DNA of 63,213 nt, counting the filler, from an uncultured archaeon (lineage in GTDB: Archaea; Nanobdellota; Nanobdellia; Woesearchaeales; CAIVOO01), in the NCBI GenBank assembly GCA_903842985.1. It is 7 parts of 7 records of this genome, joined end to end, with 100 filler letters (N's around TTAATTAATTAA, not from the genome) between each part and the next. Parts side by side here need not be neighbours in the genome. Positions count along the whole stretch, not along the records: positions 1 to 13,445 come from CAIMOB010000001.1; 6 more parts are not named here. One strand, written 5' to 3'. Shown here in pieces: positions 55 through 50,331 of this stretch. The position numbers and the translations under genes are program-made. Each line of letters starts with the position of its first letter. Positions within the stretch are counted from its first letter, which is position 1. The notes under the pieces are model-generated. The model worked only from the letters and a program-made list of their open reading frames with translations, did no database searches and was not told the origin of the DNA.

Positions 55-654
55 TTACCTGCTTGCGTCAGCCTGTCTTTCCAATTCGTTCTTCTTGGAC
101 ATTGCCTGCGAGCCCATCTCTCTCTTGTATGCCAGGATTATCTCATCTGCAAGCGTCTCAGGCGACTTCTTCTTGCTGTGGAACTTTTTCTGGTATGCTG
201 ACTGGACCATCTGTCTCAAACAAATATCAATCCTTCTCTGCGGAGCGCATTCAACTGCCTTCGGATACCTTGCTCCCCCGTATTCAATCGTGACAATCTC
301 TTCTCTTGGAGCTGCGTTCTCCAATGCCTTCACAAAAACAGCAATAGGATTCTGACCTGTCTTCTTCTCTATTATATTGAACGCCTTCTCGACAACATCA
401 CTTGCTGTCTGGGATTTTCCGCCGCAAACACCTGAAGACCTGAAATGCTTCTTTCCCTTGTGGCCCGGCTGCATCAGTTTGTTGATTAATCTTTCAACAA
501 TAAAAATCTTTGATTTGTGAAACTGCTTTCCTGCATATTTCGCGCCTGTCTTCGGCATCAGCTTCGGCTCAAGAACAATGTAATTCTGAAGCCCAGGGTC
601 ATCTATCTTAATTCCTGCTGTGCTCCATTTTCCGAATACTAGTATCTCGCTCAT
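55..654 (-). CDS. rps7: 30S ribosomal protein S7 (uS7)
   Basis: Archaeal S7 motifs (IVERLINKLM, NAAPREE, ELERQADASR); follows S12. Confidence 0.97.
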   Translation of the reverse strand: MSEILVFGKWSTAGIKIDDPGLQNYIVLEPKLMPKTGAKYAGKQFHKSKIFIVERLINKLMQPGHKGKKHFRSSGVCGGKSQTASDVVEKAFNIIEKKTGQNPIAVFVKALENAAPREEIVTIEYGGARYPKAVECAPQRRIDICLRQMVQSAYQKKFHSKKKSPETLADEIILAYKREMGSQAMSKKNELERQADASR

Positions 655-706
655 TTTAACGAACCTCGTGAGTTAAAATGCTGCAAATCGAAGATTTGCA
701 TCATTT
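651..706 (-). repeat. Start-codon double-hairpin element, copy A1 (S12/S7 junction)
   Basis: Sense: AAATGA TGCAAATC-TTC-GATTTGCA G CATTTTAAC-TCACGAGGTTC-GTTAAAATGA; similar copies at 1136, 47870, 50273. Confidence 0.9.
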
Positions 707-1138
707 CCTTGCCTTCTCAAGCTTTCCGTGCCTTAAAGCCAATAGTGATTGGTCATTAACCTTGATAACCTGCCATCTGACTCCTGGAATATCTCCCATG
801 GCCCTGCCTTGTTTTCCGCCGATGCACTCTACAAGAACTTCATCGTGCTCGTCAATAAGCTTGATGGCGCCGTCGCCAGGTGCAAAAGCTGTTATCTGCC
901 TTCCATTCTTAAGAAGCTGGACTCTTACAGCTTTTCTCATTGCTGAGTTCGGCTGTTTTGCCTCTAGCTGGACCTTTTCAAGCACAATTCCCTTTGCCTG
1001 CGAAGCTCCTTCCATCGGGTCGAACTTGATTTTGGTGCCCAGAGTCCTTCGTATGTATCTCTTATCGCACCATCTTGATTTCTTCCTTCTCTTCTTCAGC
1101 TTCGATGCTGAATTCATTCCACTTGATTTGCTTCCCAT
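701..1138 (-). CDS. rps12: 30S ribosomal protein S12 (uS12)
   Basis: [11 protein letters not shown] and GDIPGVRW motifs; start trimmed to MGSK. Confidence 0.97.
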
Positions 1139-1197
1139 TTTTATGAACCTCGTGAATAAAAATACCAGCAAATCTCAGATTTGCGCTGCATTTTTAT
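1136..1197 (-). repeat. Start-codon double-hairpin element, copy A2 (nusA/S12 junction)
   Basis: Sense: ATAAAAATG CAGC GCAAATC-TGA-GATTTGC TGG TATTTTTAT-TCACGAGGTTC-ATAAAAATG. Confidence 0.85.
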
Positions 1198-13197: not shown

Positions 13198-13445
13198 AGC
13201 AATGATGAAATTTAAAGAATATATAAAAGTTTCTGTTTTTAAAAAGAGTCGCCGCTGAAGCGACGGAACCTTTGGTTCGAATTACCCACTTTTTGCCATT
13301 GCCAACTTATTAATATTTATTGCTTCAATCTGATTTTCCATATCACTTATTGAATGTATAACGCTTGCGATAGCACATATTAATGCTATAGACCCGGCAC
13401 AAATAATCAAATCAGACGAAGAAGGAGTAACACCTCGAGTAATGG

Positions 13446-13545
13446 NNNNNNNNNNNNNNNNNNNNNNNNNNNNNNNNNNNNNNNNNNNNTTAATTAATTA
13501 ANNNNNNNNNNNNNNNNNNNNNNNNNNNNNNNNNNNNNNNNNNNN
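13446..13545. other. Artificial contig linker
   Basis: N run + TTAATTAATTAA + N run, 100 bp. Confidence 0.98.
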
Positions 13546-13628
13546 AAAATTGTCAAGCAAATTTATATTCCTAAAACAACAAGCTTCCAAGAGGTTTATG
13601 CTTCGTTGGAGGTAGGCACCGCACTAGC

Positions 13629-46863: not shown

Positions 46864-47742
46864 TCACAACTCCTTGTAAATCTCTTCTGCGGTTTTCTTC
46901 AGCTCTTCAAGAGGAATGTCAGGTATCTTTTCCTTGGGCACGCCGTGGACTTCAAACAAGTCGAATATCCGCTCTGCGGCTTTCCCGTAATAAGAATCTT
47001 TTATCTGAATAAAATAATCCAAATCCATTATGACATTGTAAGACGGCGCCCTGACAAATGAGCCGACATAGGCCTTTACTTCGCCCGGCACATTCATATT
47101 TTTATCTTCATTTCTTAAATGCTCAATCTCATGCTGGACGTAGCTCTCCACCAGGTTATTGTAGATGTTCTGTCTCGTCTCCTCGTCATTCTTGCCCTTC
47201 ATTGATTCGTAAAACCTTGCATTAACCTTTGCGGGGAAAAAATCCACATCCTTTGATTTGTAAAGCTCAAAAACTCCGTTAGTGAGCGACTTCATTTTCT
47301 TGTCGTCTATGAATATCCTTCCATACAGATTAAATGCATTGGGATTGTCAAGAGATGTGCCGGCAGATGTCAATGGCTCATACATTATGACATCATACTT
47401 ATTTCCATTGTCAACTGCTTTTCTTATCGGCTTTGTTAGCTTTCCAAGAAGATTTTGGCGGTAAAAGTATCCCCACTTATCTATTAATTCGTTTTCAAGC
47501 TCCTCATGCGTTTCAGGAATTTCAACGCATCTGCTTAACTCTTCAACAAGTTTTATTTTTTCTTCGCGGTTGTCTTCAACTACGAATCTTTTCATTGAGT
47601 TTTCAATTATATTATTGCAGTAATTGCCAATAACATTTCCAACAGGGTCGTTTGGCTTTGCTGGGGACGATGCTAATGCCGGAGCATTTGCTACAAAAGG
47701 CAAAAGAAATCCTGCAGTTAACAGCCAGTTCTTGAGCTTCAT
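46864..47742 (-). CDS. Secreted HExxH protein (putative zincin-like peptidase)
   Basis: Signal peptide MKLKNWLL...ALA; QHEIEH...GEVKAY. Confidence 0.6.
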   Translation of the reverse strand: MKLKNWLLTAGFLLPFVANAPALASSPAKPNDPVGNVIGNYCNNIIENSMKRFVVEDNREEKIKLVEELSRCVEIPETHEELENELIDKWGYFYRQNLLGKLTKPIRKAVDNGNKYDVIMYEPLTSAGTSLDNPNAFNLYGRIFIDDKKMKSLTNGVFELYKSKDVDFFPAKVNARFYESMKGKNDEETRQNIYNNLVESYVQHEIEHLRNEDKNMNVPGEVKAYVGSFVRAPSYNVIMDLDYFIQIKDSYYGKAAERIFDLFEVHGVPKEKIPDIPLEELKKTAEEIYKEL

Positions 47743-47873
47743 TTTCCCTCCAGATACTCCCTCAAAGCGCATTCCACGAAATGGCTCCTGTTCCTAAACT
47801 TTGGCGCTCTTGATTTCTCTATTATCTTTAGAACAATATCCTCTTCCAGTGTTATGCTAAGGTTGTGCTTCAT
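47739..47873 (-). CDS. CopG/ribbon-helix-helix protein (44 aa, absent from the ORF track)
   Basis: MKHNLSITLEEDIVLKIIEKSRAPKFRNRSHFVECALREYLEGK; ATGA overlap with the next gene. Confidence 0.8.
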   Translation of the reverse strand: MKHNLSITLEEDIVLKIIEKSRAPKFRNRSHFVECALREYLEGK

Positions 47874-47927
47874 TTTAACGAACCTTGTGAGTTAAAATGT
47901 CCGCAAATCATGATTTGCGTCATTTTA
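47870..47927 (-). repeat. Start-codon double-hairpin element, copy A3 (5' UTR of RHH gene)
   Basis: Sense: TAAAATGA CGCAAATC-AT-GATTTGCG GA CATTTTAAC-TCACAAGGTTC-GTTAAAATGA. Confidence 0.9.
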
Positions 47928-49480: not shown

Positions 49481-50275
49481 ATGAATTTCCTTAGGACGTT
49501 TACATCTAGCCTTAATTTTCTTTCTTACGAACGGCTTGCTGAATCCAGTGTCAAGGAGACATTTAAGTACCTTGCAAAGCTCGTGCTTATTTTTTTCATA
49601 ATTTTCTGCCTGCTGCTGATACCAAAGCTTGTCACGCTTTCAAAGACAATTGACAGCGACCTCAACAAATTTTCAGTTATCCAGCTCAAGACAAACATAA
49701 CTCAGAAAGAGCCAATTGTTTTGTATGGAAAGGACAGCAGGATGATGGTTACATTAGACACAGCAAGCAACGCAACAACTGTTGCAAAAGGGAAATATCT
49801 AATAACTTCTAGCAATATCATAAAGAAAAGCTGGCTCGGAACAGAAATTACAAGCATTAAGGGATATTCTGATGTTTTGAAACATAAGGAGTTTTACAAA
49901 AAGATTGTTTACGTGCTGATTGGGCTTGCGATTCCAGGCATTGTTTTCTTCGGCTACATCGGATATCTAATCAAGTACATTGTTCTGTCATTGATTGTCT
50001 CATTTTTGATATTGATTGCTGTAAGATTATTTAGATACGAAGTTAGCTACAAGCAGATATTTAATTCAACTGTTTACGGGATGACAATAGCAATAATGCT
50101 TGAGGCTGTGCTTAAGCCATTTATTTATATCCCATACATTGGCGTTAACGGAGTCGCATTAATCGCAGGCATTGTCTGGGCGTCGCTTGGCGTATCAAGA
50201 ATCGGATTTTTTGAAAGAAGAAAAAGCAGCGGCGGCCAAAAGACAAGAAGAAGGGGCTACATCGAATTAGAATAA
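49481..50275 (+). CDS. DUF1189-like membrane protein
   Basis: Several TM segments; SYKQIF..TVYG.T. Confidence 0.6.
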   Translation: MNFLRTFTSSLNFLSYERLAESSVKETFKYLAKLVLIFFIIFCLLLIPKLVTLSKTIDSDLNKFSVIQLKTNITQKEPIVLYGKDSRMMVTLDTASNATTVAKGKYLITSSNIIKKSWLGTEITSIKGYSDVLKHKEFYKKIVYVLIGLAIPGIVFFGYIGYLIKYIVLSLIVSFLILIAVRLFRYEVSYKQIFNSTVYGMTIAIMLEAVLKPFIYIPYIGVNGVALIAGIVWASLGVSRIGFFERRKSSGGQKTRRRGYIELE

Positions 50276-50331
50276 AATGACGCAAATCACGATTTGCGGA
50301 CATTTTTAACTCACAAGGTTCATTAAAAATG
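50273..50331 (+). repeat. Start-codon double-hairpin element, copy A4
   Basis: TAAAATGA CGCAAATC-AC-GATTTGCG GA CATTTTTAAC-TCACAAGGTTC-ATTAAAAATG. Confidence 0.9.

Follow-up and report, generated by a model that had tools for sequence, protein, structure and literature searches.

Four genes of one archaeal genome begin immediately behind the same short double hairpin, which raises the question of whether this element controls their translation or arrived there by some other route. The window, which is the whole stretch of DNA analysed (63,213 nucleotides), consists of seven joined contigs of the genome G000 (879 kb, 41% G+C, 60 contigs, 92.65% complete). Its gene content suggests a Woesearchaeota-like DPANN archaeon. 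A sequence-only reading had placed four copies of the element at 651, 1136, 47870 and 50273, each with an upstream AAATG, a first stem, an anti-start segment, an 11-nt loop and the real start codon. It had proposed a lineage-specific translational switch or a protein-bound RNA/DNA motif. The four start-type copies and their layout were confirmed in the window sequence, on two contigs (C1 and C6), as were the unrelated downstream genes, which encode rpS7, rpS12, an RHH_1 protein and a flavin-reductase-like protein. The parts of the copies are as follows.

651..700, minus strand: copy 1 (subtype A), a 50-bp insertion including one repeat copy, at the ATGA overlap of the rps12 stop and rps7 start
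701..706, minus strand: left repeat of copy 1, AAATGA, the old rps7 start overlapping the rps12 stop
682..700, minus strand: stem 1 of copy 1, with GCAAAT/ATTTGC core and variable loop
672..680, minus strand: inner arm of copy 1, complementary to both repeat copies; candidate guide
661..671, minus strand: loop 2 of copy 1, made up of TC, a 2-bp helix, a 3-nt loop and TC
651..660, minus strand: right arm of copy 1, with the right repeat and the working rps7 ATG (652-654)
1136..1188, minus strand: copy 2 (subtype B), 53 bp including one repeat, at the rps12 start
1165-1188, 1145-1155 and 1136-1138, minus strand: core hairpin, loop 2 and working ATG of copy 2
1189..1197, minus strand: left repeat of copy 2, 9 bp, holding the stop of a NusA-like KH gene and the old ATG
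47870..47919, minus strand: copy 3 (subtype A), 50 bp including one repeat, at the start of a 44-codon RHH gene (47739-47873)
47920..47927, minus strand: left repeat of copy 3, 8 bp, with the old ATG
50274..50279, plus strand: left repeat of copy 4, AAAATG, overlapping the stop of a DUF1189 gene; its old ATG opens a 10-codon frame
50280..50331, plus strand: copy 4 (subtype A), 52 bp including one repeat, with the working ATG of the flavin-reductase-like gene at 50329

In each case the upstream AAATG belongs to a direct repeat of the start, of 9, 6, 8 and 6 bp at 1136, 651, 47870 and 50273, respectively.

Copy number and subtypes

The 11-nt loop occurs exactly four times in the window, once in each copy, and eight times with at most one mismatch (1.82 expected; reached by 0 of 100 shuffles). 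Across G000 there are 11 exact occurrences, each ahead of an ATG. The copy search was performed with a profile HMM, in place of a covariance model; built from 10 seed copies, it detected 19 copies in G000 at E <1e-5 and one degenerate copy (E 0.35), with a best match of E 2.0 on the reversed genome. The total of ~20 start-type copies is joined by an internally deleted copy on contig C47 and a right-end remnant. Subtype A has ATGA, then C or T, before GCAAAT, and ATGA flanks it on both sides in 16/18 copies; subtype B has G, then CAGC, before GCAAAT and TGG after ATTTGC. The copy at C14:88546 was left unparsed in the repeat, relay-frame and motif counts (hence n=19); its upstream match in the comparison genome G001 is another locus, and it was excluded from the occupancy count.

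Covariation and two near-equal predicted folds

The covariation claimed for the element is real. For 25 start-type copies, scored over the two hairpins and the 2-bp helix inside loop 2, 97% of cells were paired and 26 cells were compensatory, above 500/500 shuffles and all slid controls, although these figures are inflated by the kinship of the copies, and the alignment of runs of differing length accounts for part of the signal in two stem-2 columns. Individual pairs followed the earlier description less closely. The outer pair of stem 1 is T-A at 651 and C-G at 47870 and 50273, as described, but copy 1136, of the second subtype, has an irregular CAGC/TGG loop foot. For stem 2, the closing pair was said to be C-G or T-A; at 50273 it is a C-A mismatch, and stem 2 of copy 1136 contains a T-G pair. 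The conserved 11-nt segment is exact in all four copies but is not a plain loop, having an inner structure of TC, 2-bp helix, short loop and TC. Among the 25 aligned copies, TC..TC and the inner helix are each present in 23, and the TC..TC that closes loop 2 reads GA/GA on the opposite strand. Tandem G-A pairs are a stable motif. Loop 1 is variable, with 14 forms in 16 copies, and loop 2 has 8.

Predicted energies of the start-open and start-buried folds differ by no more than 2 kcal/mol in 16/18 G000 copies folded, but copy 1136 is predicted to prefer the open fold by 6.8 kcal/mol. The two folds are nearly equal because one arm can pair with either copy of the duplicated target, in the order repeat, hairpin, inverted repeat, repeat. 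Strand preference was small and mixed: stem 2 was lower on the antisense strand in 24/25 copies, by 0.4 kcal/mol, and the whole element was lower on the sense strand in 19/25.

The family had not been recognised from sequence, and neither Rfam nor the literature (main texts) provided a description. An Rfam search of the window returned a tRNA as its sole match, and a search of 10 copies at E up to 1 returned one flanking tRNA, all else falling far under the gathering score. In the main text of a preprint on 208 complete Nanobdellota genomes, 'palindrom' and 'hairpin' have 0 occurrences (10.64898/2026.05.13.725050).

Empty sites, direct repeats and mixed occupancy

We compared G000 with a genome of the same genus, G001 (64% complete; 686,593 bases used; ~83% identity across 446 kb aligned), and with the more distant outgroups G003, G005 and G006. 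G001 has orthologous places for 11 of the 20 start-type sites, 8 empty and 3 filled, the other 9 being without a comparable place. Four of the empty sites are clean 50-bp gaps, as seen for copies 1 and 3 (the gene downstream of copy 3 matches PF01402). Empty sites hold one copy of the flanking repeat, and a direct repeat of 3-9 bp flanks 19/19 parsed G000 copies. Conversely, two sites are filled in G001 and empty in G000, and one of these has just the right half. At rps12 and rps7, G003, G005 and G006 lack the element too, and the filled state is therefore a gain; by copy, the empty genomes are G001, G003, G005 and G006 for copy 1 and G001, G003 and G006 for copy 2. For copy 4, the flavin-reductase-like gene was not found in G001 (64% complete), and the best-matching genes in G002, G003, G005 and G006 (30-47% identity) are without the element upstream. 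In G005, a different hairpin-rich insert lies ahead of the rps12 start (L015).

Metagenome assemblies gave further states of the same sites. One X6 contig spans copy 1 and is without copy 2, which is also missing from a second X6 contig with 2 differences in 158 bases. In one X5 contig, copy 2 is reduced to loop 2 and the right arm, stem 1 being lost; another observation from X5, a contig that skips 651-700, has 6 ambiguous letters and 27 letters on its short side and is weak alone. At copy 2 the window is also matched by X1 and X2, which are possibly its source. Given the fragmentation of G000 into 60 contigs, an assembly artefact might be suspected, but its probability is negligible: the copies differ among themselves, they are present in other genomes and metagenomes, and the X6 contigs that span copy 1 come from a separate study, so that independent assemblies already refute it.

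Copying involves the entire unit. Composite copies at two unrelated genes (C14:102905 and C51:6191) hold an identical nested pair of extra hairpins, and the unit was therefore copied whole. Collectively, elements have been gained at single sites, have left a direct repeat, have been copied as a unit and have decayed by internal deletion. We conclude that the element is very probably a mobile insertion.

Two other observations concern variation between related genomes. The gene start at C14:102905 has a simple copy in one assembly (L180:945-1008), a composite copy with another stem in G000 and none in G001, and is possibly a site hit by repeated insertion. Separately, other hairpin-chain families differ between G000 and G001, including AAAATCC/GGATTTT pairs, TCAGAAAC/GTTTCTGA and a ~150-bp repeat; their sites in G000 are C14:92708-92770, C19:1156, C46:1597, C46:8401 (147 bp with an 11-bp repeat, at a tRNA end), C38:34623 and C60:9539.

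A wider family with many kinds of target

The core hairpin of subtype B was found in 11/401 genomes of the order, with 0 matches to the reversed pattern, and in 25 metagenome loci, one of which was dropped as chance. The right half of the start-type element is narrower in distribution, with 4 loci in the species collection: three already-counted copies and one in a Nanobdellati record. Scans of viral sequences gave 0 matches to the stem-2 pattern and 3 chance-like matches to the core. A relaxed pattern matched 78/221 genomes, a figure that includes many chance coding matches and is not a prevalence; in other orders of the class it matched 4/52 genomes, and 0/4 loci fetched form the hairpin.

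Core contexts comprise Shine-Dalgarno sites, start codons, tRNA 3' ends, the 16S 3' end, the rps10 3' end, and tRNA anticodon and D loops, the tRNA, 16S and gene names being partly assigned by reading the sequence. At the tRNA, 16S and rps10 3' ends the core is antisense to the gene, and at locus L173 a 48-nt insertion of the core family lies in frame in a reverse-transcriptase gene. Most contexts have a common layout, namely X, core, inverted X, loop and X, where X is the local target sequence. In distant families, stem 1 changes sequence with compensation and the foot stays constant (20 copies, in regions picked by eye as hairpins).

The match between inner arm and target was quantified in 43 copies, after near-identical copies had been collapsed (48 to 43) and L166 (58% G+C, chance-like) dropped. 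Over the seven positions below the foot, the mean is 4.63 Watson-Crick pairs, compared with 2.86 after flank swaps (5000 swaps, maximum 3.49), and the mean repeat length is 6.9 bp, compared with 3.6 bp with swapped flanks. Arm pairing in the 20 stem-variant copies, again in regions picked by eye as hairpins, was 4.3 versus 2.48. The inner arm thus matches the local target over many target types, with about a quarter of copies breaking the rule (for example, the G079 multi-hairpin repeats and the D-loop inserts). A G directly precedes the core in 27/30 genome contexts; the genome pattern, unlike the metagenome pattern, did not require this flanking G. Long repeats of at least 30 bp occur at L093 and L250, and the repeats at the rps10 copy L178 are diverged.

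Several loci have more elaborate arrangements. At L178, L183, L186 and L096 the core lies at the rps10 3' end between two diverged copies of the gene end, a layout resembling, by analogy, that of an integrating element that supplies a replacement end. A head-to-tail tandem of a 50-bp GAGG-targeting version precedes a gene at L111 / L115 (G003 C9:21428-21656), with an assembly gap in the array. At L095, L103, L109 and L113 (G079) the core is inside a ~260-bp repeated multi-hairpin element whose loops are inverted between copies.

The tRNA copies bear on a route through RNA, in which a small archaeal intron or hairpin RNA would be reverse-spliced or reverse-transcribed (for example, by a DGR-type reverse transcriptase) and then recombined in. 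Three of the four tRNA anticodon copies are whole candidate introns exactly at the canonical position 37/38, in tRNA-Val and tRNA-Glu, with an intron helix of 3-7 bp, and G000 has one reverse transcriptase. However, the BHB-like motif of these copies is imperfect, with a central helix of only 2-3 of 4, and 0/19 start-codon copies form a bulge-helix-bulge that would restore the empty site. Given these imperfect motifs and the lack of spliceable start copies, the RNA route is therefore possible but less likely. Reverse transcriptase was present in 3/12 genomes tested, and the copies antisense to tRNA, 16S and rps10 ends also count against it; overall we regard this route as quite improbable.

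Other tRNA genes, at L107, L099, L108, L112, L167 and L185, have D-loop, anticodon-loop and T-loop inserts, and ARAGORN made no call at four scanned loci of this set; in G000 there were 19 tRNA calls in all. The reverse transcriptase of G000 (C54:26408-29278; L147, L206) has nearby a pair of similar asparagine-rich frames, whose sequences suggest the template repeat and the variable repeat of a diversity-generating retroelement.

Start codons as sites of insertion

Start-type copies always have the orientation of the downstream gene. The GAGGT of loop 2 matches the 16S 3' end of G000, and in copy 1 it is located 8 nt ahead of the ATG; GAGG has been lost in some copies. With a crude gene caller, 199/287 (69%) of AAAATGA/G sites outside coding interiors in G000 are starts, with 491 more sites inside coding sequence, and 15/20 copies are at starts of frames of at least 70 codons by the same caller. 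Sequence targeting plus the loss of harmful insertions therefore suffices to account for the location at starts. By recognisable genes, 19/20 copies are at starts, and there may be some preference for real starts. The copy on contig C27 is at a stop codon, followed by a frame of 11 codons. The same contig has, near 13400-13600, two overlapping frames, one of 47 codons and one that contains cysteine and lies in another phase; both are kept in G000 and G001 and are possibly a frameshifted small gene.

The old start codon remains upstream of each copy. An upstream stop is at most 10 nt away in 15/19 copies, and the old ATG opens a frame of 10-34 codons that ends at -23 to +1 of the new ATG in 19/19. 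For copies 1 and 3 this frame has 17 codons and ends in ATGA on the new start, an exact overlap seen in 7/19 copies, and for copy 2 it has 16 codons and stops 5 nt before the new ATG. Altogether 12/19 frames end within -6 to +1, and 7/19 stop 15-23 nt short. In the parts of PMC10666635 on Haloferax and E. coli, re-initiation needs an overlap or a very short gap and is nearly gone at ~20 nt. By these distance limits, 12/19 copies could keep translational coupling, whereas the other 7, a point against the relay, would depend on the element's own site. We infer that the left-over ATG may serve as a short translational relay frame.

These results bear on the proposal of a lineage-specific translational switch, or protein-bound leader, acting through two folds. 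Several properties fit a switch: the small energy difference between folds in most copies, the constant orientation with a Shine-Dalgarno match at 8 nt, the three sites common to G000 and G001, and the retention of loop 2 where stem 1 is gone. Against this, the element is missing at the orthologous genes in close relatives (8/11 empty, with empty outgroups), the genes have no common function, the share of copies at starts (15/20) compares with 69% for background sites, and GAGG is not always kept. Moreover, the core is found where no translation starts, both within a coding sequence and in antisense orientation at the ends of tRNA, 16S and rps10, and the C27 copy precedes only 11 codons. A switch is thus very unlikely, with at most some old copies domesticated. 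What stands of the proposal is a structured, lineage-restricted family, apparently undescribed and with real covariation, and a protein-bound DNA motif is still allowed. The element is most likely a genetic parasite, harmless by design, that brings its own ribosome-binding site and a duplicated start, and not a translation switch. As a caution, a leader that is predicted to be bistable and shows covariation can be the scar of an insertion.

Possible routes of movement

The constant asymmetric foot and the fixed join point to a protein that works on DNA in single-stranded form and is guided by the inner arm, an interpretation that we favour with some reservation. We read the element as a non-autonomous mobile DNA element of ~50 bp, probably moved by an enzyme-plus-guide route. 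Its layout is a target repeat X, hairpin 1 with the conserved irregular foot, inverted X, the hairpin-2 loop and X. A host or trans-acting protein would recognise the irregular foot on single-stranded DNA, and the inner arm would pair with the element's right end and with the target, setting the site, with the join just 3' of the ATG and one base (A in subtype A, G in subtype B). Repair synthesis would complete the insertion, giving variable repeat lengths and now and then refitting the arm to a new target. The start-codon subfamily would be tolerated in essential operons through the Shine-Dalgarno site and ATG that it supplies; the left-over ATG would yield the short relay frame, which in the canonical 50-bp form closes on a newly made ATGA overlap. 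Both folds of the RNA would be a by-product.

Searches for a mobiliser were negative. Profile searches of G000 (92.65% complete) detected no PF01797, NF047646, PF01548, PF00589, PF07282 or PF01541, a crude HUH-motif scan of the same genome gave one spurious frame, and there was no sign of an autonomous copy, an excised circle or a joined end. PF01797 (Y1) is present in 2/11 core-positive genomes versus 132/401 overall (G318 is counted only in these tallies), and no copy lies near the 31 Y1 loci of the order, the best profile match having E 0.012 at 1.3 kb from the gene. Two candidates were rejected. For the first, a weak NF047646 match (G079, L116), the sequence suggests an IS200-like gene that carries end hairpins of its own. 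The second is an AAATC/GATTT double hairpin at L142 that was considered as a Y1 partner; it is 48 nt long and is inserted, in frame, within an IS200-like transposase gene (L142:1457-1504, G145), and is hence a target. L127, L130, L133 and L134 are relatives of L142 without the insert, and L129 looks like a deletion between the repeats of a filled allele.

The lack of a mobiliser in the six searched families is compatible with insertion by no dedicated enzyme, in which the replisome or a repair polymerase would change template where AAAATG offers microhomology, copy a further element and return, with snap-back synthesis making the inverted arm. Repeats that range from 3 to >30 bp, loop inversions among the G079 copies and the many other hairpin families gained or lost between G000 and G001 fit this route. 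The repeats of at least 30 bp and the diverged rps10 repeats also run contrary to a simple enzyme route, needing local synthesis or recombination beyond cut-and-join. The variable and sometimes long repeats therefore indicate that DNA synthesis finishes the event, and enzyme-free template switching stays alive. It predicts, however, neither a foot conserved across distant families amid stem change nor the G before the core, and we consider it unlikely, retaining the enzyme-plus-guide route as the preferred reading.

A broader possibility, which we put forward tentatively and with some doubt, is a minimal reprogrammable class of element in which a constant protein-bound foot would be combined with an arm rewritten for each target and a single-strand enzyme of these archaea. 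Harmless subfamilies would rebuild what they hit (ribosome-binding site, coupled start codon, tRNA or rRNA end), and a landing at tRNA 37/38 would be a new intron. The target-matching arm suggests an enzyme for which a few bases of the element may define the target, and this would be of interest for tools.

Comparison with known systems

This is a real, recently active and apparently undescribed mini mobile element. It means that gene-less mobile DNA spreads in essential ribosomal operons of streamlined archaea, rebuilding the start and the stop-start overlap that it breaks. In its working the element resembles REP or IS200/IS605-type hairpin elements, but it lacks defining features of these, of MITEs and of Ssn/SRM.

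In the parts of PMC8266576 and PMC6006769 that concern them, REP/BIME sequences are imperfect palindromes of 20-50 nt with a conserved irregular zone, thought to be moved in trans as single strands; intergenic dispersal, variable loops, and tandem and composite forms are common to REP and our element. The element is likewise an imperfect palindrome with a conserved irregularity, its foot being constant and its stem covarying. It differs in that GTAG/GTGG is at the foot in 0/19 copies on either strand, that no RAYT/tnpA-REP gene was found in G000, and that it has a target repeat and an inverted target copy and rebuilds gene starts. IS200/IS605 elements insert without target duplication, whereas our element leaves direct repeats and has no TnpA association among genomes of the order. 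According to the relevant section of PMC6006769, the IS200/IS605 target is set by pairing with a guide beside a protein-bound hairpin. The target-tracking arm suggests a similar guide pairing next to a hairpin, but this candidate guide is 3' of the hairpin and has 5-15 nt of plain complementarity that varies with the target.

The Ssn system, as presented in the main text of PMC11893778, has short oriented hairpin repeats near important genes, like the element, and its NTS/SRM is acted on as single-stranded DNA; the word 'archaea' was not found in that main text. The SRM consensus fits 0/19 copies, and GIY-YIG (PF01541) was not found in G000 or G001, with 3/16 genomes tested carrying the gene (presence only). 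With MITEs, as outlined in part of PMC3184786, the element shares being short, non-coding, dispersed and foldable, with direct repeats of 3-9 bp in 19/19 copies. A single repeat copy is present at the 8 empty sites, as for a MITE. It differs from MITEs in lacking terminal inverted repeats (across 19 copies, complementarity covers 2-5 of 10 end bases) and in its variable repeat length. As for a parent IS, the three families searched (PF01797, PF01548 and PF07282) gave no match in G000 (92.65% complete).

Rickettsia palindromic elements can insert in frame in genes. The L173 insertion is likewise in frame, but compared with those elements, which are among the families listed in PMC3184786, ours is half the size, is mostly at gene junctions and carries target copies. 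Finally, like the archaeal bulge-helix-bulge tRNA introns covered in part of a 2026 preprint (10.64898/2026.10.13.758758), members of the family are whole canonical-position candidate introns, here in tRNA-Val and tRNA-Glu. Among start copies, 0/19 have a boundary with all three helices. These whole-intron members offer a testable route for the arrival of archaeal tRNA introns, a question that a 2026 preprint, in the part concerned, leaves open for Asgard archaea.
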